A DNA stretch of 59,236 nt, taken from assembly GCA_964368435.1 (NCBI GenBank), contig CAYJBS010000002.1, positions 1 to 59,236 on the forward strand, given 5' to 3'. A program made the translations under genes and the position numbers. The DNA comes from an uncultured Christensenella sp. (lineage in GTDB: Bacteria > Bacillota > Clostridia > Christensenellales > DTU072). A model generated the notes under the pieces. That model was not told where the DNA came from. It worked only from the letters and a program-made list of their open reading frames with translations, and did no database searches. Positions 13,644 through 41,583 of this stretch are shown here, piece after piece (position 1 is the stretch's first letter; each line of letters opens with the position of its first letter).

Positions 13644-16600
13644 TTAGTATTGAGTGATAACATTGACGAGTTTTATTCTTACGACAACAGAGGGCGAACC
13701 CGGCACATTCAGCGTTGTGGCTATGGTGTAGGTGGTGCCTGTCGGAGCATAAGTGTCTACGTCATAGAAGCCATTCAGCTGTCCTCCGTAGTTGCTGAAC
13801 TGCAATCCTTGAGGACTGTGATACCAGCCGCCATCGGTGGGTCCCATCTTCCAGACGCTTGCTTCCTGCCACGGCATGTATGTCACAGTCTTCGACCAAT
13901 GCCAGTTTGTGAAGAGACCCCAATCGTTCATCCATCCATCATCCTCATATCGGTAATGCACCTGAAGCAGCGGCAGATTGTAAAGCTCAAATCTTGTGCC
14001 TCTCTCTACCTCGATTATCGGTACTGCGTTCTGCGTTATTCTGTTTACGGTATTGTAGTAGAAACTGCTGATTGCGCTATCGCCATAACCGCCCTCTTTC
14101 AGCCCTGTCGGATACTTCCAGCCACCGTCTACGCAAAGCGGGGAGTTGGGATACGCTTCGCCATGATCGGGATTTACGATATAAGCCGTTTCGTCACCGG
14201 GGTTGCCGTAGTCGTCGTTAATGACGCCGCCGTTCTCGTTTCGGTTGCAAGAATTGTCAACGGTTCCGTCGAATTCCTTCCAATCGTTCTCCTCGGATGC
14301 CTCGCTGAGGTTATAGATATGCACGGTGTCGTACGCCGCCAAAAGTATTGTACCCTTGATGTTTTCGACAGACTCGGGGTATGCGCAATATTGATCTATG
14401 CCATAATCCACCAGCGCTATTGAATATCCGGGATACATTTGGTTCTCAGCGGTTGTGAACTTGTGCTTCACTACCTTCTTTTCGGGCATTGCGTACCATT
14501 CCTCAAGTTTTGCTTTGGCTTGGGATTGCGACTCGTTCTGCGACCAGCTGTTGTGCGGAAGTACGCCGGGCATATTGTCTTGGTTTATGGCGGAGCCTGC
14601 AGGAGTACGGAAGTTGCGCAAGATCAACGGAGCGCTTATGCCCGATTCAAGCCCTCTGGAGCCAATTCCGTATGAGAAGATTTGTTGGAAGGTCTTGGGG
14701 AAGGTGAAGGTGCCCGATACTGTGACAACCGAAGGTATATTGGTGTTTACCCACTTTCTCAAGCTCAAGTTGGGGAAGCTCCACCTGATTATTTGTCCGC
14801 CTCTGCCACCCAGCGTCATTGTGGCGTATTGTGTTGTGCCACTGCCGAACATCACCTCACCGAAGTACCATTTGTTGTTATTGTTGTAATAGGTGCCTCC
14901 GCCTTGAATATTCAGGAAGTTCTCTTGCTGTCCGGAACCGAAGGTCACTTGGAAGCCGTACTTGCTGTCATAGCCATGCAGCGCCTTGTTGAAGGGGACA
15001 TAGGTTCCGCCTTCATAATACACCACTTGGAAGTACTCTTTGAAGGAACCCAGTGTTTTGTCCGGCAACAGTATGATGTCTTCAGGACCATATTCGGTAT
15101 CGTCATTAAAGGCGTCTATAGTGTACAACTCGTTGGTTTCCGGATTAATCAAGGATTCTTGATCGCTGTAGCCGCCGTATACCCACGGTGTTGAATTGAA
15201 AGTAAAGGTGAAGGGCTGATTGTCAATATCCATCGAAGTCGTCGTAGATATGGTCAAATCATAATAGTTTACGTAGACCCTGCCTCTGCTGCCGCCCGAC
15301 CACAAAGCGTCTGTGAAATAAGGAGTAAGCGTTGTGGATATTCTGGTGGCTCCTTCATAATAGTATGCTTCGCGAGTAGCGTAATCCACAGCGGCTAAGC
15401 CGCTGGCTATTTTTTCTTTCCACTCCTTGGTTGTGACATATATCCAGATATAGTCGGGCATAGGTACGCCGCCTCTCTTGATATAGTAATATGGGTTGGT
15501 GATGGTGTAGGAGTTCAGGTTACCCTGCGTGTAGGTTATGGCTTCGCCTTGTCCTTCCACAGAGAGGTGTGCCGCGCTCGAAATGTTGTAATTGTCTTCA
15601 ATACCTTGTTGGATTGTGGCAATATACTGTTCTTCCATTGTGATGGCAACTGCCGCTTTCTGCTGACCGTCAACGCCCATTGCTAAGCCCGGTATCGTGA
15701 TATAGAAGTTCATGAAGCCGCCTCTATAGGAGAGAGGCTTGCTGGGATCCATTGCAAAACTCATCAGCAGGCTTTCTTGCTCGTCTTCTTGCAGTTCATA
15801 GGTGCCTGTCAGTTGTCGTCCTGCGCCCAGTCCTTTGTAGGTGTGAACGACAATCTTGCCGCCCTCTTCTACTCCGGCATAATTCCCCATGGTGAATGCC
15901 ATGTATTCGTCTTCAAAGCCGTCAAAGTATACCCTGAACTCATTGCCTGCGCCCATAAACAGCGCTTCGCCTATCGCCTTTGTGAGGTTGGGCTGTCCAA
16001 GATAGTCATAGGACTTCAGCACTGTGTTTTCGGCGCCGTCCTTGAAGATGTTTTTGAAGCCTTCTTGATTTCCGAAGATGTCGATGGTGGTCTTGACCTT
16101 TCTGGATTTTACGAAGACAGGATAAGTTATTCTCTGCAACGAATCTCCGTCACCTATTTGGGCATAGACCTTGTAGTTGCCGCCGACAAATCTCAACTTG
16201 ACAGTGGCGTCATCCCAGGTGACTTCAATATTGGCTCTGACTGAGTTGTCTAGCGAGGCAAGGTCAAAGAGTGTGCCGTCGTTAAAGACAATCGTCGTGC
16301 CCTTGCTGCCATGCTTCAGATAGCCTTGCTCTCCGTCAAGCAATGCCGCCGTAGTATTTACGTAAGGTTTGAAGGGGTCAAACACGAAGCTGTAAGTCAT
16401 CAAGCCGTCTTCATCGAGTATCGTTTCATAGTTGGGCGCTATGTCCGGATCTGCGGCAAACATGCTCTTGACGGTACGGTCGACATAATTTATGTCGATT
16501 ATGTGTTTTTGGATCCCGCCGAAAGTGTTGCCGAAAGTGGCATATAGCCGTCCGACGCCTGCTTTGTAACCGATCTTGCCCACAGCCGTATTGTTGACAA

Positions 16601-19600
16601 ATCTTGTGTTGATGTCGGTGCCGTCATAGGTTATTTGGTCGAAGCGGTAGGTCGCTCTGTCTCCAAAGCGCTCATAATCCGCGCCGCTCACAAGTCTATC
16701 GCTGACGATTTCGTCATAGACAACGGAATGGCTGTAAATGTTGCCATCCTTTTCTACTATAGCTCCGTAAACATCAATATAATAGTTGTCGACATCGAGT
16801 CCTGAGTAGTAGGTCATATCCATAATTCTGGCTTCCATGGTATAGCCGTGGTCACCTATCTTTATGGATTTTATGTCGGATGCCGCCGTCGGTTCGTCTA
16901 TGGCGACTTTCAGGTCTACTACAACATCGCGTCCTGTATACAGATTTTTCGAAGAGGTGGCTACGCCTGTTCTCTTGTCAAATATCGTATAGTTCTTTGC
17001 TTCCAGCAAGAAATCGATGGAGCGGGGACCCGTAGCATAATCGTGGCCTTCCTCGTCTCTGTTGTTGAGCAATATCCTTGCGCGTCTGAAGTATGCGAAG
17101 GCGCCATCGGCGAATACCTCGCTGTATTTCTTCTCATAAGGATTTATTGGGATGACATCGTCTATTAACAAATATGACGGATCATATGTCCCGTTCGGCA
17201 TATTGGCTACCTTCACGAAGTCTTCGCCTTCGGTTTCATAGCTGACTTGATATTCGGTAATGGTTCTGTCATAGACCAGCACATCGACCTCTATGGATTG
17301 CAGTCCCGTCTTTATTTGCCGTACGGTCTCTACGCCGTCGATGAGGACGGTTTCGTTTTCATAGATGTAGATGGTGGCTATTGCGGCGTTCTGCTTCTCC
17401 TTGGTGTACGTGCCGCCTTTTACGGACATCGTATTGGAGATATGGCTGAACGACCAGTCCACATAGAGGATAATATCGTTGGCATTGTTTTTGAAGCGCG
17501 CTCTAAGCATCGTCGGCAGTCCCGTGAAGCCCTCGAAAGGCTCTATCAGCAGTCTCTTGATGCCGCCGCTCAAATCCTGCTCGATTCTTTGGAGATTGTA
17601 GTCGGCGTCGTAAGTTGTCACCTCTTGGGGCGTAAGCACTGCCAGACTTTGCAGCTGACTGGGTATGATCTGTACCGGCACATCAAAGGTCTGTTCTAGT
17701 TGGGTGCCCTTGGCTATCGTCGCCTGCACATAATAGATGCCGCCGAGATAATTGTAACGCAAGCGGGAAATGTCCCAATCTATTGCCAACTCTTCTTCAG
17801 CACCTGCGCTGAACAATACTGTCGCCGTATCATAGTCGCCGAAGTCTATCTTCTCATAGACACTGCCGACAATCAACGAATCAATGTTTTGGGCAATCAT
17901 TTCGCGCAGATAAACGCGCACTGTTTTTGTTTGGCGTACATCGAAGTTCTCTACGCCATAAGCCGTATCAAATTCAGTCGTTCTGCCGATACGGAAGCTT
18001 ATGTCATAAGCTTTCTCGAGGAAACCGTTTGCTTTGTAGTCAGCGAAGTTCAGCGGGTCGATTTTTACGTCGACGCCGAGTCCGCTTCTTACATCTGTAT
18101 TTACGATAAGATTGATATACGGAGCAAGCTGTTGTTCAAGAGAGACATACGGGAATATAGCAAGCTCGTCGGGAAGTTGCGCCAGAGGTATGGTGCCAAT
18201 CCTTATGATTTCGGGCAACAGAGAAATAGTAATTGTGTGATAAATATATCCGAAGATGCTGTTGCCTATCTTGGCGGTAGCTTGCGTCGAAGTGCTGAGG
18301 TTTGTGTATGGCTCAACATTTGTCCATACGACATCAAGCGGCAGTACCTCGCTGGCATTGTTCTTGACGAACTTGACTTTTGCGTAGGCAGGAAGCGGTA
18401 TGTTGTCATAAGTCTTGTAGACAAGCTGATCGAAATCAACTTCGTTTGTCAGTTCGCCTGCTTGTTCTGAAGCAAAGAACTTGATGTCCTTTCTGAGCTG
18501 CTCCATATCGTCGATGTAGGTATAAACTATCCTCGGGCTGGTGTTGACAACGTTTATGTCGAATTTCTGCAAATTCTTCAGTCTGTTGCCGACGGTGACA
18601 CCCTGCGGCAACGCAAAGCCTGCGCTGGCATAGAAGGTTTCGGAATACTCTCCCATCTCAAGTCTTGCATCAAGCAGCGCTCTGCCGCCTGCGGTGAAGT
18701 TGACGTACAGTTCTTGTATTTCGGTCATCTTGAAGGCATCATTGATATTCAATACGCCGTTCTGGAAGGTCCAAATGATTCCCAATGCCTCATCTTCCAC
18801 AGTCTTATCGGCAAGCAACTTTACGCCTGCGGATGTGGCAAATTGCGAAGCAAGCGAGCTTATGGTTCTGTTATGGATGTGCGCTTGCGGAACATTGACT
18901 ATGATTTCTTGGCGCCAGATGGCATTGGTTTCGTAGCCTTTGTTGCGGACAGTAAGTATTATGCTGTTCTCTCCGCTGCCATTGTAGCTGATACCGCCCT
19001 CGTTGGAATATCTCCATGCCGGAATGCCTTCATTGAGTTCAAACTCCCAATAATTTATGAAGCCTGCCTGCCTTGATTTGTTCCAAAGCCTTATGCCTCC
19101 CGACAGTAACAATCCAATATTGTCGTAGCCGTATTCGTCTTTGTAGTCGTCAAACTGCGCAAGATAGTCATCGATTGTCGTATCATCATACGGGTCTATC
19201 GTGACACTGTTGTCGGCTATGGCTATTCCCAAAATATCCAACTGTTGTATGGTTATTCTGACGTTTCTTATGATTTGGTTGCCGAATATCGGATCGGACA
19301 ACGCGGCGTCGGTATAGAATACCTTGCCTCTGAAGTTGTTGACAAGTTGCGCTTCGTCTATGTCAAGCCACTCTATCGGTACATTGTTTTGGGTGATACC
19401 GGAGAAGTTTATGACGGGACGGTTGGGAAGAACTATCGTCTCGTTGGGGGCGAACGACAAGTTGGTGGCAATGTTTGTCGCCACTCTTGCCGGCACATTC
19501 AGCGTAACTTCAAGCACCTCGTTATCGGTGGTATAATCGCTGTAATATTTGTCCCAAGACTTAATGGTCAACTGTCTGTTGTTCTCACCGACATTTGCGG

Positions 19601-37600: not shown

Positions 37601-40600
37601 TGGTATCAATAATGGTGCGTCCGTTCAGCTTGTTGACAATTTCGTTGAGTTGTAAACGTAGTCTGTCCCACGCTTGAGCTTGTTGTTTGTATTTGGGGAA
37701 AGTGGGATAAAGATTGGTGACATAATTAAGCGCTGCGTTTGCTATGGCAAACTCATCCGTCAAGTCGGAATATTCGTCATTCTTTTGGTTCAGCAGTTGC
37801 TGTGCCGCCAGTATTTCTTCGAAAGCGCCGTCTCCATCGCTGATGTAATCTTCAAGATCGCTTATTTCTTCAATCAATATATCTTTTGCTTGCGTACCCG
37901 CAGAATAATAATTTGTCCAGAAAATAGATTTCTTGCGGTCGGAATCCTTGCAGATGGCGTCCCAAGACATGGACTGCGCCTTGATGATGATGTTTGCCAG
38001 CTGTGTTCCTTCAGGCTCATAGTTTTGGTCTTCTTTCAAATCACGTTGGCGCTGAACAAGCTCGTCTTTGTACTTCTGGAACATATCGTTCAAATAGCTT
38101 TTTTCGGCAGTCTCCGAGGTGTCTGAATTCAGCTTGTTCCAGGCAATGGCTTTCGACTCGTCATCGCTCTGCATGATTGCTTGCACTATGTCGTCCATGG
38201 CGCGGCGCTGAAGTTCCATGCCGGCAAGGTATTTTTTGTCCCATTGCATCGCAAACAACTGGTGAAGCGTGCCTTCCACGTCGGTCAAAGCAATTTTCGG
38301 CAGTCCAAAGTGCGAAAGGTCGACATAAGCCTCGTTGTTGATGAGGTATACGGCAAGGAAAATCCCATAGGTCTTGCCATCAATATCAGAAGTGTGTCCG
38401 TTGGCGCCGACTTCGTTGTCTCTGTCATAAATGACTATGGCAAGTTCACTGTCTAAAATATTTAAGATACTTATATTACCTTTTATTGAGTATCCAATAT
38501 TAATGCTGAGTTCACCCAAAGAGAATCTGACGGCAAGACTCTTGACAAGTTGCCCCATGAAACTCGACGGATCGCCGCCCGAATATAAGCGGTCGAACAG
38601 ACCGTTCAGGAAATTGTTTTCGTAAACCTCGGTGCCATCGGGCTTAAGAGAAATATATCCCTCACTGGCGACAGAAATCTTTAGGCTTTCTGCCCAATAT
38701 TTTATGTTTTTGTATTCTTCTACTTTGTGTCCTGTGACCAGCGTATTTCTGCCAATCTTTACGTATAAATCTCTGATGAAATTCAAATCGAGAGTTATCG
38801 CTTCTATTTGGGCATTTCCGGAATCGAGGATACCCATATGGATTTGAATATAATCACCCGTTGCTTTATAGAGCTGTAATTTTATGTGGGCATTGACTTC
38901 GGGCGCTGTCATATTGGTGCCGAGGAATTGAAGCAGTACCGTAAGCAGCTGCGCGCTGACCAATATTTTTATGGATTCAGTAGGTTCTTCTTCGTTGTCT
39001 CTTCCGATGATGATTTCGGAGATTATGGAACCTATGAGTCCCATCATATCCATAGGATCATCTGCCTCAAGCTCAATCTGATCGCCTGCGGCATTGTAAT
39101 ATTCCGCCATGGCGGCGTTGTTCGCTTCGCCCATACCCGAAAGTAGATTGCGGATGCCGACATTCTCCATTTTTAGTTTCGGCAACTCGGCAATGATGTT
39201 GAGCATCGGCAGTTTGCGTTTCAAAACGCCAAGCTGTGAAAGATCGAGATAGAGCGTGTCTTCGCTTCCGACATAATAAACAGTCAGGAAAGCTTCCCTT
39301 TTATGCAAGTCGTCTGCCGGCAAATAAACCATCAAAGCAAGCTCGATATTGCTGAAAGTAACGATATTCAGGTTGGCTTTTATGTCGTATTCGAGATCAA
39401 GACTGCCCGTCTCGTCTATGCCCAAATTGAGCATAACATTCTCTATGATGCCTCCGACTATGCCCGACAAATCGATGCCGTCGCCTGAGGGGAAGGTAGC
39501 GTTTGTGCCTACCGAAATCTCGCCTGAAATATTTATGTTGTAGACGGCAACGTCGTTTACGTCGGTATAATCGCCGTATTTTCCTTCGATCTCGGACAAA
39601 TCAAATTCGGGGAAGGTGAAATAAGTGATACCTTTGACTTTTACGCCGTCGTAGTTTTCGCCGCCGAGATGCACGCCCAGAGCAATATCCTCGGTCACTT
39701 GTATGTCGAGAGCAATGCTGTCAAAAATATTTGCTAAATCAAGTTTCAGGGAAGCGCCTTCAAATCCAAAATCGGCGCCTTCGAGGAACAATCCCAGCAC
39801 TTCGTTGAGTCCTGCTTTGTCGAAAGCAAGCGTCAGCTTCTTTGTGCCCGGCTCTGCCGTCAAGTTCTTAGTGAGGATGTCAAGGATTTTGGCAAAATCC
39901 AATCCGCCCTCCTCCTCATCGCCATCGGCGTTTTGGGGTTCGATCGGTTCGACATAAGCAGGATTGACGTAGGGCATAATGCTGCCTAAAATATCTTCAA
40001 ACAGCACGCCTTGCAGGTCTATGCCGCCTATACTTATATTGGGGATTATGACATCTTTTTTGCCGTCGCTTCTTATTCCTTTGAGGGCAGACAAATCCAA
40101 ATAAAGCACATTGTTTACGACGGCAGCGCCTATCGCAATGGCATTGGGGTCAGGCAATAAATAGCCTCTGATGAATTGTTCACCATTGAAGGTCATCAAA
40201 ATTTCGGCTTTTGTGTTGCGGTTGTCGAACATATCGAGAGCCGCCTTGACATTTATGTCAAAACGATATTCGCTCTGTTCTTTGAACTTCAGAGGAATGT
40301 CGCCTACGGCGCCGAGGTCAACGAAGTCACCCAGCACCGTTCTCAACGTCAATTCCGAATTGGCTTCGTTTTTGATGAATAGAGCGGCGTTTAGTTCGAC
40401 ATTGCCCAAACTGCCTCTCGTATAAGTGGTGTCCTGACCGCCTGCGCCCAACGATAAGTTGGCGAAGGATATGGCAACGGTCTTTTCGTTTGAGGCTTTT
40501 ATGGAAATAGGTGTTATGCGGATATCAAGGTCATACCCGTCTTCAATCTCGGGACAAGTGACACGCATGCCCATACCTGAGAATACATAGTCGTCTTTCT

Positions 40601-41534
40601 TGGTGCCGTCAGCAAGCACAATTTCTTGCAGAGTATTTATGGCAGAAAGCTGCGCCGACATGACGGGCCAGTCTTTGTTTTTTATGGTGTCGAGGTCAAA
40701 ACCAAACAGCATCTTGAGCAACGGATCGAGGTTGGGCAAGCCGAAAGCCTCCCACTCAATAGTAAGATCAAGAAGACTGCCTATCTTCAAACCTGTTTTG
40801 AGAATCTTCAACAGGTCATTGGCTTTCAGTGTATGACTGACAAACTGAGTCTTTTTTGATTCGTCAAAAGAAACGGTGGAAACACTGGAGTCGTATAAAA
40901 TGTTCATAGAAATGGCAAGACCGACATATTCGGCTATTTGCTTCGCCGATTCCGAACTGCCAAAGTTCGGCGCGCCGGCAAGGAACATTCCTAGCATATA
41001 TGAAATATCAAGATTGCTTTCGATGAGCGCCTTGGATATCATTTTGCCTACTTGTGTGAGATTGAGCTCTCTCATGTAGTATTTTTGGCCGTTAATTTCA
41101 AGATACGCATTTGCTTCGACATAGTAGAAACCCAATACTACGTTGCCGTTGTAGACGTTCTTGACGACGAAATACATTTCGCTCTTCATGTTATCGAGAA
41201 GATTTATGTTGGCTTTTACGGTTACGAGGTAGTCAACATTATAAACGGGCGCCACGCCGTAATCGGTGAATTTGTAGGCAACTTGGAAATCAAGGTTCAG
41301 CCATTCGGGATCTGCGACCGTCTTGCGGTCCATATTGTTGACGGCGTTCCTTATGTATGTGTTGGCTTCCTTCTGCGACATTACGATGACTTGCTGATTG
41401 GAGTCAACATTGTCTTTTATGCCGCTTGTTGGAGCTTCATATTCGCCCTCGCCTCTCGCAGAGCAAGATATCAATGCGAATGCCATAATTATGCATAAGA
41501 GCAATAATATCAGTTTTGTTAATTTGGGTTTCAT
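13644..41534 (-). CDS. Giant 9,296-aa surface lipoprotein of unknown function
   Basis: Single ORF of 27,891 nt with no in-frame stop. GGGGAGG RBS (41542-41548) 7 nt upstream of the ATG. Lipoprotein signal peptide at the N-terminus and a terminator after the stop. My hand count of 9,296 residues matches the track. Residue-to-nt mapping was verified in the DNA: YVFEGWY at 25650-25670, LYLDL at 39240-39254, W7289 = CCA at 19668-19670, Y6371 = ATA at 22422-22424. Confidence 0.95.
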   Translation of the reverse strand: MKPKLTKLILLLLCIIMAFALISCSARGEGEYEAPTSGIKDNVDSNQQVIVMSQKEANTYIRNAVNNMDRKTVADPEWLNLDFQVAYKFTDYGVAPVYNVDYLVTVKANINLLDNMKSEMYFVVKNVYNGNVVLGFYYVEANAYLEINGQKYYMRELNLTQVGKMISKALIESNLDISYMLGMFLAGAPNFGSSESAKQIAEYVGLAISMNILYDSSVSTVSFDESKKTQFVSHTLKANDLLKILKTGLKIGSLLDLTIEWEAFGLPNLDPLLKMLFGFDLDTIKNKDWPVMSAQLSAINTLQEIVLADGTKKDDYVFSGMGMRVTCPEIEDGYDLDIRITPISIKASNEKTVAISFANLSLGAGGQDTTYTRGSLGNVELNAALFIKNEANSELTLRTVLGDFVDLGAVGDIPLKFKEQSEYRFDINVKAALDMFDNRNTKAEILMTFNGEQFIRGYLLPDPNAIAIGAAVVNNVLYLDLSALKGIRSDGKKDVIIPNISIGGIDLQGVLFEDILGSIMPYVNPAYVEPIEPQNADGDEEEGGLDFAKILDILTKNLTAEPGTKKLTLAFDKAGLNEVLGLFLEGADFGFEGASLKLDLANIFDSIALDIQVTEDIALGVHLGGENYDGVKVKGITYFTFPEFDLSEIEGKYGDYTDVNDVAVYNINISGEISVGTNATFPSGDGIDLSGIVGGIIENVMLNLGIDETGSLDLEYDIKANLNIVTFSNIELALMVYLPADDLHKREAFLTVYYVGSEDTLYLDLSQLGVLKRKLPMLNIIAELPKLKMENVGIRNLLSGMGEANNAAMAEYYNAAGDQIELEADDPMDMMGLIGSIISEIIIGRDNEEEPTESIKILVSAQLLTVLLQFLGTNMTAPEVNAHIKLQLYKATGDYIQIHMGILDSGNAQIEAITLDLNFIRDLYVKIGRNTLVTGHKVEEYKNIKYWAESLKISVASEGYISLKPDGTEVYENNFLNGLFDRLYSGGDPSSFMGQLVKSLAVRFSLGELSINIGYSIKGNISILNILDSELAIVIYDRDNEVGANGHTSDIDGKTYGIFLAVYLINNEAYVDLSHFGLPKIALTDVEGTLHQLFAMQWDKKYLAGMELQRRAMDDIVQAIMQSDDESKAIAWNKLNSDTSETAEKSYLNDMFQKYKDELVQRQRDLKEDQNYEPEGTQLANIIIKAQSMSWDAICKDSDRKKSIFWTNYYSAGTQAKDILIEEISDLEDYISDGDGAFEEILAAQQLLNQKNDEYSDLTDEFAIANAALNYVTNLYPTFPKYKQQAQAWDRLRLQLNEIVNKLNGRTIIDTKTGNPRLDTSDPSNRIKYSSWNIYKEKVSVDAETWRGLYASASPQTKVVLDALYDELLESLYLRTKEIMPEVARKNALSLLQDHWRAEFRAQYPGENNEQINARVASYLSTNRQLVEEAYLNEAKARIYNHFDRNDIDMLALALYKQQGDISNLAPDNAADFNKILQASKDYILNASYNNPTAILLQMWFGNDKLSINISSEVMNNLLQMLELNLPVTIRETYLALMLGENFGIDLSTGADVFLLEAHIGNFSFGVLEEDRHVIEVPQKIDYAEGTANGIPEAIYVKVEGSLFFINNPINSEGKNLFTFTPLLQEFLAVSPFDKKELREFIDIVKDETELKDEELKREAWDRLYTGSLTVQQRVEMDTRLTLVVEEIAEKEENVTDNEKFARAWDKLISSASLLNLDRMGIDTEIVFNGQSNVSLNFKIEGYIFFADLLKSNFSIEITSDDGSGEQKLVIRAVYNGADVYIDTELFDIGKVKLENIENIITYWQDLFTVLLPEDAAQPQNSAPSYAVEDIKTYLDFMFFDGGFTVALAKAAIMNVIGFLGVDITPYFSELDFGANVTLALNPIAVEAEVFFNILEQRDEYGNLIYERGDRTDYDVNLGLRLGGLDVGFTDKIAVPDESQYANISNFERISISFSGKLDLSLETPDEGYQFDYLVNMFTNFWLQRNPDIGLIFSIIENIYGLEVYFDLSANIDLLSIADLRNLELYFNLTSKEAYDSYHSEVNVLNRSRMENTYASLGSGALAADAWDAYYSFITTSNNLTERERIEEVFNRLRLEYNYLPDDARLKALSWETAYGEAGDFILGDILSLYIVIDDDGIADAYLDLRVLGIEPIVIRDVKNIIAGFTGSPESILPQNSGKELSSPLSAADNSTALLASRILLSIASDETIATSPIIFELTAGAIYGVIASLGFDLEAFLAEGGYHPSAELGLFGDNKLLNLNLEFEKILGFNFSIDIPSIDITNPLPMTINEAKYFEIDDEWSTFKIALEGQMNLAAGTATGTDSIYLGDLLADLLSNDSLGFDVIIRTLSDLEETITFELEAVVNIWKLLNGDLSGLQILLEATNSKGKVLFGIYLLQELDLFGETITTAYIDASAINAGKIRIPNAINIISKLFSSSAEISQANNVSLTELTALAALRSQAMNSSLQNAPDTGAKEYIMALLGQDEGFVMTAATGVITLLLESIFNDETSLMNRAWSDMVQLNMEKERDTALGLARFDLSRMDRYLEEAGELNADNTELWAYDELWQQSSGAQRTALDRRVAAIRSADISISDERAKVMVWNDIYNDLQNDIATYTAKLSKNEIENRSLQELDVVLNMQFKSVAWERWYNNALNSKTEMDKLFEEMQQRYPLESLSVIRSRSWTGYYEMYTGSPTTKTKLDTLYNSIKATNSGLTDAGIREEAWTQLYVEKQTDINNLNLIYNEAILRKTLYGMPEIWTAYYRIWAWEILYLRADETGRERMSQFIDGVLLLNTAPRRAASGWTFYNEEIDAAVLNSITENGELVSYILRPDEGGAWTRIKVARDEQLRLAEIYVNAYSEMHNIIMAAARQNAKIEASLLNGDRILGVELDVANFGLDLSINSIKPGFSELNISLPENFIKEDYKTIDENIASIYVKLAVDFGWEADELSQYDFSNLIETFIGTQDFYLDLGMSIVPVLKVLEQIGSYFRLELEGSINITDIMKSDLNLSLYTMKYVTDELGNEVLTRSDEYVFSILYINGDIFLDMEAFNIQRAHIVDAMDYFQSIFSALGTTVTPSSSANKQLDAGLFNAYSNYALNASGSRAPIDVTLDQTGLAAHVGSAAVLAILNLLGIDLTGAMDSVGELNIDVGVFKDGLLNIEISFNAVDENYIPTGDGIRLHLKLRDDFEIDVDGASHEFAPPSETFIEIRNTVPIIGVSTKILIELEAGMVTERQFIKEPLKSLLDNQGLSEVIQSIILTVWNDQNMVFEIDVKANINLMSFKDIELQVTISNWKTGKRFARINVNDGNLFIDIRDIGGDRIYIENVTDMLFGEAATAAPQAAVSAEQNLFHASGAFANKLTIEALLREQGLFVLAKRTSIEALLSMFNLNNFEIFNELHAKIYAIPENKSMTIGVEIAMGDRYISETEMDKILALGISINGIRLNFEKWDTVTLISPQKINYHLLQNINSLSLSTQFKLTLADESGIYDFTKLLELLIGDINPFSRALAPILALEEDMGDTLYFDVKVTVGMLNILEDLQVMVDIYTANRSFEMLLTYIKGDLFIDASNIGLEKIEVRGVMDIFTVLGGGTLAEDDSNDTENADYYSNLMHYQSLFNADPTELTLDQQMERTMAMVKIALDEQKGLTIRLVSGMIKSVLKMLGIDVDQYIGGIIEPNVEVGVDKHVELKIDINLESSEYDSGDLIYLNMLLERADGNKQEAWEEWKNDLNTADLLRLREYEKAEAWRFIYQQSLASPDEIAEMDEMLDWVNERHPLYTHTKKLALAWDKLVAARQTATATLMEALLYDDEVTARMLAWNRMRELGNSLQVQTLDSVFEALGNEAKYSEAWDILYKKTSLSESEKISMESILLAVGASFPAWNAARQKTEAWRQYAETLNALNPAHVVINTMMQNILEREIKGNLFTEKDKKALGWLRIMTDHAATFEETDLQFIEAQLANSDIIVRANAWDALRTYEQQRIAALATQLGTQAPATGLYLDLQNLNNQISGTTDQTLLAQLLRQRNTLLATINNINVEIQDINVTLDEMDALQAEQLGTASEAKASAWDWWRIYSITIDRVNLMDGILQAQAWDYMLQLYQTLSYTAEVQEMNAEYAALAGNVYQYAYLRKVDAWRNLATHRSSSAVQEMLTRLSSLENIVATFDTLYAEAATKNNHLANISLGLALLGEEIDLKLANETKYIDPITGDWASTIPELLSKAQKEEYKPYDELKVYFELNASLEIALEEGVLGINDILALFPAIGGIESAVRFLEEHSLYVELTGLVGIDFSKLLSEDLTDIDDAIRAEIMLKYYILDYENEGSSEEFQQVIIDAWLIGSDIYLQGEIFDSALNLHMPEMYISRLLLNMMGMSDEEVTLNPLSNAVYDSIPGYREYKESIGESVQNPFEALYSANNADEVMASSLLQALIRINSQEAGLVLTSELMTEVMKLFLGPDISDELLTIVDKIFTGGKLGVNYDDDFNVGLVLEKKREEGSETVGYMLEFSMLHDTVIAIDDATYNNFYNKYTTEEYADLFAQCFVINEVMTRFTIGVSLTLEADFIKHILDWSTLFSVQELPTIFQIRILEAVQGLITLNLQVDIDLQGGIGALDVIGEMVNEDGEVILKVYFEGGYITRGELDPRLYIESSLLGIPKIKIDVEAAAIFSGIDAELLKNFLIKTDEIATETGMPSAIQNADEADEEQAGPEVLGIKIGNLFESLSIGKGTFALVAMPSAIASIITDLFNLPFDEVGDIKLELNNLDNTLKLTIPIDAGIRDEEGNTVVPSKLNLSMGISKVNARLGPNENFFAAVDFSDFETLNSYAWATEINSSLKVNDDLCALFDLSELTMPLLGMQLQLQAAEELNIKFDFKLSTFVSFANLSDLRLQLEILQDGQRKMMIAYVGSDIQGDIYVDLNGIALPAIKTTALNLGAIVKDMLNGMFAVDEEPKSAPMNGDEGNSLAQAEALARLYPDIKDMPFGANMLLFVGHSKEVSLAITGGLLTALLENLNNVTKGGVPDIILDIPVFDSLKIGYSEKDDLAGIMLVLDEYKSFKINYSFEKSQSMMRDVDFIYEEMDIIDPAQEARDNEYEDINVIDTVALNLEAELRIKTRSEKPGFPKSDAIIALERLIEGLVGMEEGGVVFDMQDSVMTFGITLGAVISFADPTKTNVAFVIRYNENPLLSLYFIGATNKIYADLSKLGLFKVSLTGIDILGLLSGLFSEPLVTPEEGINVIELMNSLLTGSGEEEFIEDEEGYLVTFVTNEGKAVESLTATKIASSPETTREGYVFEGWYESENFYGLKAAFPFTVRYATTLYAKWAEDTQPKFPVTFNTNGGEHMDSVTVSILDSEPVPVRDDYVFKGWYITPDFSTLKETFPLAIIKATTLYAKWIEEAAQTIEVTKEVPTLALLLSNQELILNPNTAVLNSLLGMMLPDFADIRMSMNVAEGINNLSMNLKVDNLGNSVNLTVPRGGLTISFNPNTVKVPSAFQLTKYGGLSGLMFNSQNGFNIETIALLDSVLDGIKLYNLEVFLDKRTDYWERKDLYTIYPPGQMGSKGGDEPYANTPTGPVYYPDDDAGYNGVLTDSQQAMLATLNVLKALATLAKAGNFGDAIGDIVSGVDTETKEPIFYRNRYKRGKLRLTKTVGNAIEIAIQTLTWNTGSTNVYLEKHRILLQLGSQFNIKIPVVNISIPLAKWGNSLLSGLTGANSFENKGILLPIALYPRTLIDPPEEEDIIDEETGQIIIPAGNTGRLYGRVTAPGEDNEGVEGMKITIGTPDETNENILTAYTNKEGWYFFLNIPCPEALDEENDDDGDDGNDKAIIEVLNTMSPDEEGFYTYAGKRYVLRGTFYYDVEMGYEIKAEHPKISYGTHVKKEIIVSPKEVSSAQRLDFMVSTVEYATVTVSGVVKNKVGKKLPYTYVNYNNSEGVTADANGNYSLTFKVYDLGAAGNTSATHTIKALAGGYEEGALTLDSIYTNPDSVQTYTRNFELEPTGEIVYLTIIGSLVDGNGMPIVEETTEDDLPNIEIWIKIDGSPTLGTKAYYDIQPINFAAGKIGYDGSFRLESYGDTTDLEKSLPLLTTGTYTIKVRSPVYNNRNFTFTITEEQAASANYVKDIGTIELSKRPFHWYDNEPVVKFLQPDTEEAILPSLLQKIRIRLGADVKDGDEHNNADNVDNEAWNDDGEPYSDYDADMGNLIYEGGGGDLYNDYTYIEIWPDSAMLNDLLMTVQGLLFNMINMSNISKTKRILPIDTSTGSFNREEDSDGNPVDEDKYNVFLGTFNEDDSNIYDPMYASKGAFYQALNSALAKLPGGFIHFAIATVLQSYLRNASFSLGGERIGLIDLIAVGINNPGLVGDAIIGPFAAVSSYIPYVGGLISLLLNGLKQLIVLVFNQLHDILQDASNLLAHAVPFNLAYNMYDTMDLNGSPLNTYYKNGVLTEGKRVDGGKNLRRDVKYFDLSVYAKITLDATADVLADRITLFLNSASFRNETVKLPEDSNYMEEDDRTKQGDWIDGYWEYTGRVADFGNGNLNPAGVNYDIRSREMKERKTIIAGVPQTAAQTAMNEWTRRNNVNSYLVIVDYAIDGDGKEYVYNQTYVYDDETNPKEDTYQEIDINNTGLNFRVLSTMGSEFVKVEHDTGTNEFTHTVMVPPSQITFHDPYDLTDFTMFGGSWVGSSGAVSGSRRNYDPTFTIFDALPDRNMASFVDGHSRGSQGIAMLWDISAVKIDPAGISLQDAVILPGYALNLTYSNVKVVVEPFNIIPGADNIQFLDMEDIDPDTFNEHEYLATLPKMFKYEYQQGDKQKTYFFNELSWSFDKKIVDGIKTYPSLMYDTDETPYVWLTYSYTGAPVQAARVKVSLNIIDRSITTVTASAHALGEETVNSGLELSMNGIEAADAGNAAHNGYDGVVQFSPFDCKDPYTVMKNITHMNVSTSEGLPINDWRVMSGSFVDLNGADGRLSSYDSSDLSRRIYSVTYKLVDKIGFIQTVKILVEIRSKEIIGSDLNTAREVVPYDIYSGGAQKTILQRLGLPDTFNINYGDGTGGTMSVFAPGTEKYTQRNITLEYEGIIQSFTLIEGATLSWMIPLMSYNGGIYKAKALVGGEIAKFKLAEQLTDIRLSNMNALYNEGTCIVNAWDGLYSDSMRIDRSAMNTLVEQLRIQNNLTVRQAKIEAWAVWYGKQDARTQSTLDVRLMKQQMGYTTMSISDAKVESWNTLYAYSYRKELDAMRKRVFDNNPGAPILSLKAVAWDIMIRETANTHQKDIMNGILDSIERQDPDNENLKAAAWDDYYDNSTENKAEMDRLYQRTAAANVGENNRQLTIKSWDKYYSDYTTDNEVLEVTLNVPARVATNIATNLSFAPNETIVLPNRPVINFSGITQNNVPIEWLDIDEAQLVNNFRGKVFYTDAALSDPIFGNQIIRNVRITIQQLDILGIAIADNSVTIDPYDDTTIDDYLAQFDDYKDEYGYDNIGLLLSGGIRLWNKSRQAGFINYWEFELNEGIPAWRYSNEGGISYNGSGENSIILTVRNKGYETNAIWRQEIIVNVPQAHIHNRTISSLASQFATSAGVKLLADKTVEDEALGIIWTFQNGVLNINDAFKMTEIQELYVNFTAGGRALLDARLEMGEYSETFYASAGFALPQGVTVGNRLKNLQKFDINVVNTSPRIVYTYIDDMEQLRKDIKFFASEQAGELTNEVDFDQLVYKTYDNIPLPAYAKVKFVKNNASEVLPLDVVWTNVEPYTNLSTSTQATAKIGNSIFGYIYHTITISLLPEIIRIGTIPLAQLPDELAIFPYVSLEQQLAPYINLIVNTDVRSGLGVDVKIDPLNFADYKANGFLEKAYDISFRIGRTTEFDTAYGVENFDVRQTKTVRVYLREMIAQNIDSLIVGSVYEKIDFGDYDTATVLFSAGAEEELAIDWDISRLRYNYLGGIYYVQATIAKGTQLEQTFDVPVQIIPSQLQSLAVLTPQEVTTYDADYNLQRIEQDLSGGIKRLLIEPFEGFTGLPTMLRARFKNNANDIILYVDWSFSHISNTMSVKGGTYTKEKQNAAIATIYIYENETVLIDGVETVRQIKTGLQSIEVDVLVYDRTITEYQVSYETEGEDFVKVANMPNGTYDPSYLLIDDVIPINPYEKKYSEVFADGAFAYFRRARILLNNRDEEGHDYATGPRSIDFLLEAKNYTIFDKRTGVATSSKNLYTGRDVVVDLKVAIDEPTAASDIKSIKIGDHGYTMEARIMDMTYYSGLDVDNYYIDVYGAIVEKDGNIYSHSVVYDEIVSDRLVSGADYERFGDRATYRFDQITYDGTDINTRFVNNTAVGKIGYKAGVGRLYATFGNTFGGIQKHIIDINYVDRTVKSMFAADPDIAPNYETILDEDGLMTYSFVFDPFKPYVNTTAALLDGEQGYLKHGSKGTTIVFNDGTLFDLASLDNSVRANIEVTWDDATVKLRFVGGNYKVYAQIGDGDSLQRITYPVFVKSRKVKTTIDIFGNQEGFKNIFKDGAENTVLKSYDYLGQPNLTKAIGEALFMGAGNEFRVYFDGFEDEYMAFTMGNYAGVEEGGKIVVHTYKGLGAGRQLTGTYELQEDEQESLLMSFAMDPSKPLSYRGGFMNFYITIPGLAMGVDGQQKAAVAITMEEQYIATIQQGIEDNYNISSAAHLSVEGQGEAITYTQGNLNSYTITNPYYYIKRGGVPMPDYIWIYVTTKEWKEKIASGLAAVDYATREAYYYEGATRISTTLTPYFTDALWSGGSRGRVYVNYYDLTISTTTSMDIDNQPFTFTFNSTPWVYGGYSDQESLINPETNELYTIDAFNDDTEYGPEDIILLPDKTLGSFKEYFQVVYYEGGTYVPFNKALHGYDSKYGFQVTFGSGQQENFLNIQGGGTYYNNNNKWYFGEVMFGSGTTQYATMTLGGRGGQIIRWSFPNLSLRKWVNTNIPSVVTVSGTFTFPKTFQQIFSYGIGSRGLESGISAPLILRNFRTPAGSAINQDNMPGVLPHNSWSQNESQSQAKAKLEEWYAMPEKKVVKHKFTTAENQMYPGYSIALVDYGIDQYCAYPESVENIKGTILLAAYDTVHIYNLSEASEENDWKEFDGTVDNSCNRNENGGVINDDYGNPGDETAYIVNPDHGEAYPNSPLCVDGGWKYPTGLKEGGYGDSAISSFYYNTVNRITQNAVPIIEVERGTRFELYNLPLLQVHYRYEDDGWMNDWGLFTNWHWSKTVTYMPWQEASVWKMGPTDGGWYHSPQGLQFSNYGGQLNGFYDVDTYAPTGTTYTIATTLNVPGSPSVVVRIKLVNVITQY
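13647..14297 (-). other. Trp/Tyr/Gly/Asn-rich C-terminal domain of the giant protein (residues ~9080-9296)
   Basis: Seven Trp in 37 residues (W9201, 9205, 9211, 9213, 9222, 9228, 9237; nt 13824-13934): DDGWMNDWGLFTNWHWSKTVTYMPWQEASVWKMGPTDGGWYHS. No LPXTG motif, no C-terminal TM helix, no SLH or choline-binding pattern. Confidence 0.5.
16086..21383 (-). repeat. Ig-like (Big_4-type pattern) beta-sandwich repeats in the C-terminal third (residues ~6718-8483), interrupted by W-repeat cluster 6
   Basis: Recurring pattern [IVL]-x-W-[DSTL]…G-G/x-Y-x-[VA]-x-A…[VI]-x-[VI]-x-[VI]. Examples: IAMLWDISAV…VKVVVEP (6718-), LSWSFDKK…ARVKVSLNII (6814-), IEWLDIDE…VRITIQQ (7386-), VVWTNVEP…HTITISL (7735-), AIDWDISRLRYNYLGGIYYVQATI…VPVQII (7917-), YVDWSFSH…GGTYTKEK…IEVDVLVY (8024-), EVTWDDATVKLRFVGGNYKVYAQI…YPVFVKS (8437-). 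Confidence 0.4.
19530..20147 (-). repeat. [AS]-W-[DN] helical repeat cluster 6 (residues ~7130-7335, 6 very regular copies)
   Basis: Trp at 7138, 7176, 7215, 7251, 7289, 7327 (spacings 38, 39, 36, 38, 38). Copies: NAWDGLY, EAWAVWY, ESWNTLY, VAWDIMI, AAWDDYY, KSWDKYY. Each is followed by a ~30-aa helix-prone segment ending in a K-[IAV]-x triplet (KIE, KVE, KAV, KAA, IKS) just before the next Trp. Confidence 0.7.
22335..22607 (-). other. Internal hydrophobic, Gly/Pro-rich segment of the giant protein (residues ~6310-6400)
   Basis: KLPGGFIHFAIATVLQSYL…IGLIDLIAVGINNPGLVGDAIIGPFAAVSSYIPYVGGLISLLLNGLKQLIVLVFNQL. This is the most apolar stretch outside the signal peptide. Confidence 0.5.
23160..24287 (-). 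other. Three CarboxypepD_reg-like beta-sandwich domains with an inserted poly-acidic loop (residues ~5750-6125)
   Basis: GRLYGRVTAPGEDNEGVEGMKITIG…TNKEGWYFFLNIP; VTVSGVVKNKVGKKLPYTYVNY…ADANGNYSLTFKV; IIGSLVDGNGMPI…GSFRLES…GTYTIKVRSPVY. The acidic run DEENDDDGDDGND is at 24072-24110 (checked in the DNA). Confidence 0.55.
25350..25763 (-). repeat. Two tandem Listeria-Bacteroides repeats (Flg_new / InlB B-repeat type), residues 5258-5395
   Basis: YLVTFVTNEGKAVES…REGYVFEGWYESENF…TTLYAKWAE and FPVTFNTNGGEHMDS…RDDYVFKGWYITPDF…TTLYAKWIEE. This is the canonical V-x-F-x-x-N-G-G … Y-x-F-x-G-W-Y … L-Y-A-K-W signature. Confidence 0.85.
29100..30383 (-). repeat. [AS]-W-[DN] helical repeat cluster 5 (residues ~3718-4145, ~11-12 copies)
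   Basis: EAWEEW (3724), EAWRFIY (3748), LAWDKL (3788), LAWNRM (3820), EAWDILY (3852), PAWNAA (3883), EAWRQY (3893), NAWDAL (3972), SAWDWW (4069), AQAWDYM (4094), VDAWRNL (4136). Confidence 0.6.
33000..34007 (-). repeat. [AS]-W-[DN] helical repeat cluster 4 (residues ~2510-2845, ~9 copies)
   Basis: Trp at 2517, 2561, 2602, 2646, 2684, 2725, 2768, 2804, 2838, with spacings of 34-44 residues. Examples: RAWSDM, VWNDIY, VAWERWY, SWTGYY, EAWTQLY, WAWEILY, GWTFY, GAWTRI. Confidence 0.6.
35181..35357 (-). repeat. [AS]-W-[DN] helical repeat cluster 3 (residues ~2060-2118, 2 copies)
   Basis: ADAWDAYY (W2067) and ALSWETAY (W2111), 44 residues apart. Confidence 0.5.
36390..36572 (-). repeat. [AS]-W-[DN] helical repeat cluster 2 (residues ~1655-1715, 2 copies)
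   Basis: REAWDRLY (W1661) and ARAWDKLI (W1705), 44 residues apart. Confidence 0.5.
37035..38267 (-). repeat. [AS]-W-[DN] helical repeat cluster 1 (residues ~1090-1500)
   Basis: Helix-prone, charged sequence containing QWDKKY (W1098), AWNKL (W1132), SWDAI (W1191), AWDRL (W1289), SWNIY (W1332), TWRGLY (W1346), HWRAEF (W1396). Confidence 0.55.
41463..41534 (-). other. Lipoprotein signal peptide of the giant protein (residues 1-24, Cys24)
   Basis: MKPKLTKLILLLLCIIMAFALIS-C: basic n-region, hydrophobic core, and an L-I-S-C lipobox matching [LVI][ASTVI][GAS]C. Confidence 0.8.
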
Positions 41535-41583
41535 TTTTATACCTCCCCTAATTGCTTAGGTAACCGTTTCGTGTTAAGACCCG

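Follow-up and report, generated by a model that had tools for sequence, protein, structure and literature searches.

A 27.9-kb gene of an uncultured Christensenellales bacterium predicted to encode a giant lipoprotein of a very rare, previously undescribed family

Why does a bacterium of the Christensenellales carry one uninterrupted reading frame of 9,296 codons, and what kind of protein does it specify? The Christensenellales are prominent, health-associated and poorly understood gut anaerobes, and some 28 kb of coding sequence under strong constraint in the window (the whole 59,236-nucleotide stretch of DNA analysed here) appears to be devoted to one surface lipoprotein. A preliminary description of this DNA had reported an intact gene for an almost wholly unassignable, lipid-anchored protein of a spore-former, and had proposed a fibre, sheath or bridge rather than an enzyme.

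The reading frame is open over its full length, and the consensus promoter, the strong ribosome-binding site (RBS) and the gene's own terminator that had been described were all located (Table 1). A simple terminator scan missed the 3' terminator. The mature lipoprotein would have a mass of about 1,035 kDa and a pI of 4.4; it is very acidic and contains only 12 cysteines. No DNA tandem repeats were found in the 27.9-kb gene. Both promoter hexamers are kept in the orthologous locus L001, and the hairpin in the 5' leader is largely kept there. The 5' leader and the upstream region are 90% identical between the two loci, despite a dS of about 2.

When 1.84 billion (1.84e9) protein representatives were scanned exhaustively, 22 relatives emerged, eight of them giants of 3.6-7.8 kaa. 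All relatives with a named source come from MAGs of Clostridia/Bacillota, and the closest genome to the giant locus is a Christensenellales MAG. The giant protein itself is not in the protein collections searched, and even among Clostridia its family occurs very rarely and patchily. A word-indexed protein search returned one match for the N-terminal 1,200 aa, none for the module profile and only P0010 for the family profile; this database evidently does not return giants. A metagenome scan with the query A3 gave matches located mid-gene, which added nothing on synteny. There were no phage or plasmid matches, and an origin from a mobile element was rejected on that ground.

Orthologues had been proposed earlier as a check on the gene, and the relatives found have open frames in independent assemblies. 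The frame of L001 is open over 4,534 codons (80% identity to the giant) and those of L004 and L005 over 7,741 and 7,745 codons, respectively. One cluster of relatives comprises 19 separately assembled copies, nearly identical to each other and 7,264-7,268 aa long. Family members are colinear from the N to the C terminus, including at least six independently assembled full-length relatives. Comparison with the L001 orthologue gives an overall dN/dS of 0.06, with values of 0.065-0.10 for the AWD helical-repeat blocks. Because the frames of the relatives are open and dN/dS is 0.06, the gene can be taken as contiguous and coding, and these signatures indicate that it is genuine, intact and truly coding. 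One relative, L003, contains four in-frame TAA stops, which may mean that the gene is dispensable in some lineages or may be errors from approximately 5x coverage. Whole-length colinearity, the lipobox, the modules, the CarboxypepD_reg block and the C-terminal third mark out a new giant Clostridia lipoprotein family. Judged from its sequence, the giant founds this previously undescribed and very rare family in uncultured Clostridia (Christensenellales and relatives).

Table 1. Positions of the giant gene, its parts and its upstream neighbours in the window (aa numbers refer to the giant protein).
Feature	Position	Strand	Remark
Transglutaminase-related lipoprotein, 1,080 aa, with Big_2 domain, upstream	46947..50189	-	syntenic in L001 (71% id) and in the distant L002 (32% id)
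Paralogous transglutaminase-related lipoprotein, 1,166 aa, upstream	43445..46945	-	in L001, not in L002
TTE1925-family mutarotase-like protein, 280 aa, no signal peptide, upstream	42606..43448	-	E 4e-58, below equivalog cut-off
PIG-L family deacetylase, upstream	41794..42621	-	in L001 and L006, absent from L002
Sigma-70-type promoter, TTGACA-17 nt-TATAAT	41627..41655	-	12/12 consensus match
Small hairpin GAAAAGGGCGTACTATGCCCTTTTT in the 5' leader, downstream of the promoter and upstream of the RBS, resembling a terminator or stabiliser	41584..41608	-	predicted
RBS GGGGAGG, 7 nt before ATG	41542..41548	-	identical in L001
Complete CDS, 9,296 codons and stop	13644..41534	-	ATG start, no internal stop, no N
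Lipoprotein signal peptide, aa 1-24, lipobox L-I-S-C24	41463..41534	-	sequence
N-terminal module region, aa 25-5257, interrupted by AWD blocks	25764..41462	-	at least 13 beta-rich modules, ~250-320 aa each
AWD helical-repeat block 1, aa 1100-1487, lineage-specific insert	37074..38237	-	dN/dS 0.065
AWD block 2, aa 1645-1715	36390..36602	-	
AWD block 3, aa 2043-2123, splits one beta-module	35166..35408	-	
AWD block 4, aa 2505-2860	32955..34022	-	dN/dS 0.10
AWD block 5, aa 3703-4180	28995..30428	-	dN/dS 0.08
Two Flg_new (Listeria-Bacteroides) repeats, aa 5258-5395	25350..25763	-	Pfam and NCBIfam
Most conserved family stretch, aa 5396-5740, no known family	24315..25349	-	family alignment
About three CarboxypepD_reg-like beta-sandwich domains, aa ~5741-6130	23145..24314	-	PF13620, E 5e-9, partial
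Conserved middle region, aa 6131-7092, no family match; hydrophobic segment aa 6365-6395	20259..23144	-	
AWD block 6, aa 7093-7360, six clean tandem ~38-aa units	19455..20258	-	
Beta-rich C-terminal region, aa 7361-9000, colinear in all family members	14535..19454	-	no PDB match
W/Y/G-rich C-terminal ~300 aa, aa 9001-9296	13647..14534	-	no LPXTG, no TM segment
Intrinsic terminator, hairpin then U6	13571..13618	-	dG -22.1 kcal/mol, z -6.0

The protein consists of a family core of about 7,200 aa with at least 13 divergent modules, followed by a beta-rich C-terminal third. The core is broken up by lineage-specific inserts, namely the two Flg_new repeats and AWD helical repeats that total 1,642 aa. 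Each N-terminal module contains a turn of the form 'Y.D.S..G..KI' and a single amphipathic segment of the form 'G(L/F)...LG(I/V)D', and the module region is hydrophobic (L+I+V+F about 33%). The AlphaFold2 secondary structure of the modules, taken from two independent low-confidence runs, shows meanders of 13-16-residue strands with one amphipathic helix per module. The preliminary description had spoken of N-terminal repeat types, which does not hold in the usual sense of the term: no tandem repeats exist at the DNA level and the modules are mutually only 17-25% identical.

The two Flg_new repeats match PF09479 with an E value of 2e-21 (76 bits against a gathering cut-off of 27) and TIGR02543 with an E value of 2e-12. 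The insert is absent from the relatives examined across this region (P0003/5/6/8/15, L003, L004 and L005). By this comparison the pair, the sole confident Pfam match, is a recent lineage-specific insertion outside the family core, and it therefore does not define the giant protein. Within the most conserved stretch, residues ~5404-5546 are 41-44% identical to distant family members. The CarboxypepD_reg match reaches 36.9 bits (cut-off 32.3) in one tiling and 27.9-30.6 bits in two others; all matches are partial (HMM positions 1-43) and cover less than 4% of the giant protein. A CarboxypepD_reg-like domain is present in all four closer relatives considered (best E 3.5e-10). The NCBI names of relatives derive from this domain. 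In the C-terminal third, two mutually recognisable Big_4-like units lie at aa 7888-7963 and 8413-8481. Their scores in the giant (PF07532, 13-18 bits, E 0.003-0.06) are below the 22.1-bit cut-off, and relatives reach 9e-10. A regular Big_4 array was rejected as a description of the C-terminal third, since only these two units are mutually recognisable. Thus, the two Flg_new repeats and the roughly three CarboxypepD_reg-like sandwiches named at the outset stand, whereas the 'Big_4-like repeats' shrink to two units. In several relatives, conservation of the W/Y/G-rich C-terminus extends to the final residues, and this end may form the distal tip.

Approximately 4.8% of residues fall within described domains (the Flg_new pair, about three CarboxypepD_reg-like domains and two Big_4-like units), and about 95% of the protein is without a match in the domain or structure libraries tried, which bears out the statement that it is almost wholly unassignable. 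The preliminary description had allowed that tile searches might place most of the length in a described adhesin or S-layer family; searches against Pfam and the PDB placed it in none. NCBIfam, PHROGs and PADLOC returned nothing on tiles except the List_Bact repeat. The PDB gave no match to either half of the protein with phmmer, nor to profiles of the module, of the N-terminal family region and of the middle and C-terminal parts. No catalytic family was detected with Pfam, NCBIfam, PHROGs, PADLOC or the PDB, by sequence or by family profile. The reported lack of NRPS/PKS, RTX, Rhs/YD, LPXTG, SLH, cadherin-like and collagen-like signatures was reproduced: a motif search of the giant protein found no RTX, YD, collagen-like or LPXTG motif, and SLH, cadherin, NRPS/PKS and Rhs had no Pfam match in it even at E<=1. 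LXG, SRRP-like beta-solenoid, FIVAR/GA, YSIRK and SecA/DEAD likewise had no match in the giant protein. Structure prediction, another check suggested beforehand, gave no confident model from the shallow alignments to be had. AlphaFold2 models were obtained for one module (10-paralogue MSA, pLDDT 46.7) and for residues 4182-5260 (5-member family MSA, pLDDT 39.0), both too poor for fold assignment. Foldseek against the PDB with the module model gave noise (TM <=0.16).

The N-terminus of the giant, MKPKLTK-LILLLLCIIMAFA-LISC24, fits the pattern of bacterial lipoproteins, the signal peptide being MKPKLTKLILLLLCIIMAFALIS-C24. As a lipobox we accepted [LVI][ASTVI][GAS]C after a positively charged n-region and a hydrophobic h-region. 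It is found in all seven aligned N-termini of the family, and the cysteine is invariant among them (7/7). The lipid anchor of the preliminary description is thereby upheld, and as a predicted modification it is a conserved family trait. LPXTG does not occur anywhere in the giant protein and there is no C-terminal TM segment; wall-binding modules (SLH, LysM, CWB/CWB2) have no Pfam match in it. Besides the signal peptide, only short, moderately hydrophobic segments occur, none of which equals the level of the signal peptide. If lipidated as predicted, the protein would be unusually large for a lipoprotein, and its size would raise questions of export and wall crossing.

The description of the host as a spore-former is unsupported. 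No sporulation gene was seen within the window, the closest genome is the Christensenellales MAG mentioned above, and cultured Christensenellaceae are described in the literature as non-spore-forming and Gram-stain-negative (PMC7937921, PMC8289216). Christensenella forms flocs with methanogen partners (PMC7002349).

The two transglutaminase-related lipoproteins encoded upstream match the transglutaminase core of NCBIfam NF045980, and the locus thus encodes several large lipoproteins. The mutarotase-like neighbour is syntenic in L001 (76% identity) and L002 (46% identity). As to conservation of the neighbourhood, a point raised by the preliminary description, the 1,080-aa lipoprotein and the mutarotase-like protein are kept in both loci, and the 1,166-aa lipoprotein and the PIG-L deacetylase are missing from L002. 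A neighbouring 2,020-aa protein was considered as a paralogue of the giant and rejected, as it shows no BLAST or module-HMM similarity.

We propose, with a probability of roughly 0.6, that the giant is a lipid-anchored, non-enzymatic surface protein of about 1.03 MDa from a new family, and that its closest likeness is to surface fibrils or giant adhesins. The coding status of the gene, the conserved anchor, the failure to find an enzymatic domain and the almost wholly unassignable sequence together favour a structural or adhesive role at the surface over an enzyme. The original preference for a non-enzymatic role agrees with the libraries searched, none of which contains an enzymatic domain matching the giant, and 'non-enzymatic' holds as far as profile libraries can tell. 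Transcription would start at the gene's own consensus promoter and end at its own terminator, both of which are present as sequence features. As the conserved lipobox suggests, the product would be exported by Sec and lipidated at Cys24 by Lgt/Lsp. The N-terminal ~5,700 aa, with at least 13 hydrophobic-core beta-rich modules, would form a long membrane-rooted stalk or scaffold. The AWD blocks, which the family comparison shows to be insertions into module loops and linkers in this lineage and which are under purifying selection, may lengthen or decorate this stalk. The C-terminal third (CarboxypepD_reg-like and Big_4-like beta-sandwiches, unassigned beta-rich domains and the W/Y/G-rich end) would be presented distally and could bind glycans, other cells or matrix.

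The recognisable domains (Flg_new, CarboxypepD_reg and Big_4) are of types typical of bacterial surface proteins and speak for a surface, adhesin-like character, as do the very acidic, cysteine-poor composition and the large lipoprotein neighbours kept in synteny. Counting against an exposed fibre is the unusual hydrophobicity of the module region, which could instead point to another function, for instance as a hydrophobic groove or in association with the membrane. Near-identical tandem repeats make up typical giant adhesins, but not this protein. Moreover, it has no wall-binding module (SLH, LysM, CWB or LPXTG) to hold it in the envelope.

Four other readings were weighed against this one. 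An artefact, either a chimeric assembly or a decaying pseudogene still open by chance, would account for the absence of the giant from the protein collections searched and for the stops of L003; it is effectively refuted by the end-to-end colinearity with six or more full-length relatives from independent assemblies, the open 7.7k-codon frames of L004 and L005, dN/dS values of about 0.06-0.10 in the regions tested, the lack of repeats able to mislead an assembler and the conserved expression signals. The perfect-consensus promoter, the strong RBS and the 5' leader, so well conserved at dS ~2 and with its hairpin, would suit a highly expressed subunit that tiles or coats the cell, as sheaths and S-layers do, better than a sparsely present adhesin. 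The 5' hairpin recalls the leaders that stabilise the mRNAs of S-layer genes. The giant also resembles S-layer proteins in being acidic and very low in cysteine, and the transglutaminase-like neighbour lipoproteins could cross-link or process it. Nevertheless, a 1-MDa monomer is far outside known S-layer protein sizes, SLH, CWB2 and other domains that anchor S-layers were not found, and the family is very rare and patchy with in-frame stops in one relative (L003), so we regard such an envelope layer as unlikely. Equally to be weighed is an enzyme, secreted or at the surface, or a protein that delivers a toxin, whose catalytic or toxic domain would lie hidden in unmatched sequence; it would be comparable to the wall-degrading giants of predatory Omnitrophota or to polymorphic toxins. 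The ~95% of unannotated sequence leaves room for a divergent catalytic domain, the mutarotase-like and PIG-L neighbours are sugar-active, and there is precedent in giant proteins elsewhere, whose carbohydrate-degrading domains were found only by structure prediction (10.1101/2023.11.21.568195). This reading is doubtful at best, given the lack of any catalytic family in Pfam, NCBIfam, PADLOC, PHROGs or the PDB and of Rhs/YD, RTX or LXG signatures, and the merely short, moderately hydrophobic segments outside the signal peptide, unlike those of Omnitrophota giants. Polymorphic toxins in particular were rejected, since family members share a conserved C-terminus in colinear order.

The last of the four is a bridge-like conduit, in which the hydrophobic N-terminal modules stack into a continuous beta-sheet groove and lipids or other hydrophobic molecules move from the anchor outward, for example to the wall surface or a partner cell, in the manner of AsmA/TamB/YhdP or eukaryotic VPS13-type lipid-transfer proteins. 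The 33% content of L+I+V+F, the amphipathic strands and helix-bearing meanders of both AlphaFold2 runs, the N-terminal membrane anchor (as in AsmA-like proteins) and a modular unit repeated across about 5,000 aa are what such a protein would display. However, alternating hydrophobicity fits ordinary beta-sandwiches equally well, and no groove appears in any confident model (pLDDT 39-47). Neither the giant nor four distant relatives have a Pfam match to AsmA, AsmA_2, TamB (DUF490) or DUF748 at E<=1, and when the family and module profiles were compared with E. coli TamB by hhalign, the probabilities were 0.1-0.3%. Known bacterial examples cross the periplasm of diderms, whereas no second membrane is known for the host lineage. 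Altogether, a conduit is improbable. A long shot is the bolder proposal that the ~5,700-aa N-terminal region represents a new fold class and forms a lipid-rooted extracellular conduit or tether from the monoderm to a partner cell (e.g., a methanogen) or substrate, perhaps passing hydrophobic molecules; if true, it would be a monoderm, extracellular and independently evolved counterpart of bridge-like lipid-transfer proteins.

The locus represents a sizeable portion of protein 'dark matter', with at least one new module type of ~250-320 aa and one new helical repeat of ~38 aa. It also illustrates a route by which giants can grow, through insertion of repeat blocks into loops of an older 7,200-aa core.

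Several known systems invite comparison. As in AsmA-like proteins, TamB and YhdP, the membrane anchor of the giant lies at its N-terminus and precedes a hydrophobic and beta-rich region of great length, with predicted long amphipathic strands. It differs from them in being four to seven times longer, in its C-terminal Ig-like domains, in the lack of profile similarity (no Pfam AsmA, TamB or DUF490 match; hhalign probability <=0.3%) and in coming from a lineage without a known outer membrane. With the giants of Omnitrophota and other phyla (West-Roberts et al., 10.1101/2023.11.21.568195) it shares rarity, largely unannotated sequence, metagenome-only occurrence and attachment-type domains. In contrast to the Omnitrophota giants, it lacks their many transmembrane regions and any detected SecA/DEAD domain, is a predicted lipoprotein from Clostridia rather than from ultra-small predatory bacteria, and is much smaller than their examples of >30,000 aa. 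The lipobox anchor recalls the Mollicutes-type surface lipoproteins of the MAG6410 family (NF045980), to which the giant itself shows no similarity and which it exceeds roughly tenfold in size. Ebh of S. aureus and Embp of S. epidermidis are surface proteins of about 1 MDa. Giant1-5 of A. kunkeei are elongated Gram-positive surface proteins of 3,000-8,000 aa (PMC12863079). No sequence similarity to Giant1-5 or Ebh/Embp was found, and the giant departs from these proteins in its N-terminal lipid anchor, in place of a sortase-dependent or C-terminal TM anchor, and in units of 17-25% identity, in place of near-identical tandem copies. What it has in common with them is its MDa scale, predicted Sec export, non-enzymatic character and place at the Bacillota surface, together with a mix of beta-rich and helical-repeat parts, transcription as a unit of its own and a presumed function in aggregation or adhesion.

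The giant gene is a single open reading frame of 9,296 codons with an ATG start, no internal stops and no N, and it occupies 47% of the window. Its closest genome match, locus L001 in the Christensenellales MAG JBNRMV010000008.1, keeps the frame open over all 4,534 codons that it contains, with 79.8% amino acid identity and only 20 gap positions. The metagenomic relatives L004 and L005 (53-60% identity) each contain one open frame across the whole 23.2-kb locus (7,741 and 7,745 codons, respectively), colinear with giant residues 834-8700. Relative to L001, dN/dS is 0.06 overall (Nei-Gojobori), with dS saturated at ~2.1, and it stays at 0.03-0.10 in every sub-region, helical insert blocks included. 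Moreover, in one distant relative cluster, separate assemblies yielded 19 copies that are nearly identical and 7,264-7,268 aa long. The contiguous frame read in the preliminary description is borne out by the open frames and the dN/dS value, and together with the 19-copy cluster they effectively exclude a pseudogene or an artefact, the latter being extremely improbable. Both the gene and the family it belongs to stand on firm ground. A further relative, L003 (ENA ERZ18242344 NODE_876, coverage ~5x; 52-58% identity), has four in-frame stops, all TAA (nt 16, 3172, 4696, and 4729), one of which aligns with a Glu (GAA) of the giant; gene callers divide it into products of 1,050, 498, and 4,162 aa. 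These stops could reflect low-coverage errors, pseudogenisation, or recoding.

The ORF, promoter, RBS, signal, and terminator described from the sequence earlier were all found in the window. Folding analysis of the 3' flank revealed a hairpin with an energy of -22.1 kcal/mol (z = -6.0) and U6 after it, which a simple terminator scan did not pick up. The gene contains no DNA tandem repeats and resembles its flanks in GC content. The 280 nt upstream are 90% identical between the window and L001, where coding dS is ~2, and the conserved part takes in the promoter, leader hairpin, and RBS. Such identity despite saturated synonymous sites points to regulation that is conserved and to expression that is probably strong. 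A ~60-nt block 5' of the promoter, GGAATTTAAGACTATTTTAAGCAAAAATTTAGTAAAAATTGACTATACTTTTTC, is 100% conserved between the window and L001; this block and the leader hairpin could represent a regulator site plus an attenuator or mRNA stabiliser.

Features of the giant, its gene and the surrounding region (window positions unless stated otherwise)
Feature	Position	Strand	Basis or remark
Giant gene	13644..41534	-	
Sigma-70 promoter	41655..41627	-	TTGACA-17-TATAAT, 12/12 match
GGGGAGG	7 nt 5' of ATG	-	sequence
Terminator-like hairpin in 5' leader	41584-41608	-	upstream-region analysis
Conserved 280-nt upstream region	41535-41800; L001 9730-10010	-	
Lipoprotein signal	N-terminus MKPKLTKLILLLLCIIMAFALIS-C24	-	canonical by sequence
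Flg_new x2	aa 5258-5395; 25350-25763	-	Pfam; directly after module region
Best-conserved family stretch	aa 5396-5740	-	family comparison
About three CarboxypepD_reg-like sandwiches	aa ~5741-6130	-	partial Pfam matches
Conserved region without family assignment	aa 6131-7092	-	family comparison
Last AWD block	aa 7093-7360	-	AWD units
Beta-rich sequence, ~1,640 aa	after last AWD block	-	two mutually recognisable Big_4-like units
W/Y/G-rich end	C-terminal ~300 aa	-	no wall-sorting signal found
Conserved upstream gene set	41794-50189; L001 1417-9739; L002 5665-9800	-	
Two paralogous ~1,100-aa transglutaminase-related lipoproteins	upstream of giant	-	same strand; MAG6410-like core, one with Big_2
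280-aa TTE1925-family mutarotase-like protein	upstream, after transglutaminase-related pair	-	same strand
PIG-L deacetylase	upstream, last of four neighbours	-	same strand
2,020-aa orphan	754-6816	-	
490-aa protein	7895-9367	-	
347-aa protein	10187-11230	-	
SpoU-type rRNA methylase, then ECF sigma factor	50702-52017	+	

Pfam was searched with two staggered sets of 930-aa tiles, which yielded Flg_new twice (E 2e-21), a partial CarboxypepD_reg (E 5e-9), sub-threshold Big_4, and nothing more. NCBIfam added nothing except the same Listeria-Bacteroides repeat, PHROGs and PADLOC gave 0 matches, and neither half had a phmmer match at E<=0.1 among all PDB sequences. Comparison of PDB with family profiles for the module, N-terminal region, middle, and C-terminus produced none below E = 0.3, which is chance level. 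A motif search found no LPXTG, collagen-like, RTX, or YD motifs. Recognisable domains make up ~4.8% of residues after the Pfam, NCBIfam, PHROGs, PADLOC, and PDB searches, and the protein is indeed almost wholly unassignable, as first proposed.

Self-comparison revealed no ordinary repeats in the giant. Sensitive tiling and an iterated HMM resolved at least 13 beta-rich module copies of ~250-320 aa in residues ~100-5250, only 17-25% identical to one another, with a common 'Y.D.S..G..KI' turn and one amphipathic 'G(L/F)...LG(I/V)D' segment. The module HMM, trained on the giant alone, also finds modules in the distant relative P0001. L, I, V, and F account for 33% of the module region, and the protein as a whole is very acidic (D+E 1,339 versus K+R 734; pI 4.4), with a mature mass of 1,035 kDa. 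Six helical AWD blocks, 1,642 aa in all, are placed between modules or within them; they comprise about 30 units, ~38-44 aa long, that share a conserved 'AWD..Y' motif (consensus ...LKAEAWDKLYDDST...DKAEMDKIL); six clean tandem units occupy residues 7124-7346. AlphaFold2 modelling of one module with ten paralogues gave a mean pLDDT of 46.7; only a ~70-residue core reached 62-84, with 13-16-residue strands arranged as a meander. For residues 4182-5260, modelled with an alignment of five family members, pLDDT was 39.0. These two low-confidence runs agree on secondary structure only, namely repeated long strands and 1-2 short helices per module, and Foldseek of the first model against PDB returned nothing meaningful (TM <=0.16).

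A word-indexed search covering 5.8 billion proteins recovered one partial homologue, P0001. When 1.84 billion cluster representatives were scanned exhaustively by HMMER with residues 2281-3480, only 22 proteins came back at E<=1e-3, eight of them giants of 3,629-7,826 aa (27-31% identity) that are colinear with the window giant from first to last residues. All full-length members start with a lipobox whose Cys is invariant. Every source-named relative comes from an uncultured Clostridia/Bacillota MAG, NCBI names being 'hypothetical' or 'carboxypeptidase-like regulatory domain-containing protein', and no phage or plasmid matches were found. Compared with the 7-7.8-kaa members, the window giant is left with unmatched stretches that correspond exactly to the six AWD blocks plus the Flg_new pair. 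AWD units were detected only in the window lineage and the closer relatives L001, L004, L005, and P0010; no relative examined at the site of the Flg_new pair has it, not even those at 52-60% identity. On this distribution, the 9,296-aa giant is a ~7,200-aa ancestral core enlarged by insertion, to which the Flg_new pair, its sole confident Pfam domain, is the most recent addition. P0009 (HKL74311.1) and P0018 (MBR1624947.1) contain even larger W-containing helical insertions between beta-modules (>2,000 aa in P0009), which the short AWD HMM does not detect. The family thus seems to grow repeatedly by taking up helical repeats.

All four upstream neighbours are found in L001. In the distant locus L002, where the giant is 34-36% identical, the first transglutaminase-related lipoprotein and the mutarotase-like gene are kept directly before it; the PIG-L gene belongs to the set in closer genomes only. 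Orphan envelope proteins are generally abundant in the window. The 2,020-aa orphan, which carries a signal-like hydrophobic segment at its N-terminus, matches nothing in Pfam or NCBIfam, and neither BLAST nor the module HMM relates it to the giant. The 490-aa protein (lipobox-like N-terminus, …LLTGC) and the 347-aa protein likewise lack Pfam and NCBIfam matches. Divergent from the lipoprotein/giant cluster are the SpoU methylase gene, which adjoins the cluster in L002 too, and the ECF sigma factor gene. Despite its name, SpoU is not a sporulation gene; the name may have prompted the spore-former idea of the preliminary description.

The best-supported reading, with a confidence of about 0.6, is a lipid-anchored, non-enzymatic giant surface protein, whose export route, lipidation, shape, and ligand we infer. 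A stalk or scaffold rooted in the membrane would be built from the N-terminal modules and lengthened or decorated by the AWD inserts; the C-terminal sandwich-type domains and aromatic-rich end would serve as the distal binding part. An abundant envelope layer or sheath appears unlikely, and a hidden enzyme or toxin within the giant is improbable. Because a bridge had been proposed and the hydrophobicity recalls AsmA/TamB-type proteins, this relationship was tested directly. The giant and four distant relatives gave no AsmA/TamB-type Pfam match at E<=1, and hhalign against E. coli TamB, run with the family and module profiles, gave probabilities of 0.1-0.3%; membership of that family is not supported, and we regard a hydrophobic bridge-like conduit as improbable.

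The premise of a monoderm spore-former is not supported, since the literature describes cultured members of the lineage, Christensenellales, as non-spore-forming and Gram-stain-negative (PMC7937921, PMC8289216). Christensenella forms flocs harbouring Methanobrevibacter (PMC7002349), which makes an aggregation or adhesion role for the giant surface protein attractive but unproven.

Giant surface proteins as such are already a known kind. They include Giant1-5 of A. kunkeei (PMC12863079), and giant genes have been surveyed (bioRxiv 10.1101/2023.11.21.568195). The window giant shares scale and probable role with all of these. Ebh/Embp are likewise giant surface proteins, and the same likeness extends to them. 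Unlike these known proteins, the window giant has a predicted N-terminal lipid anchor, lacks near-identical repeats, shows no homology to described families over ~95% of its length, and belongs to an extremely rare family.
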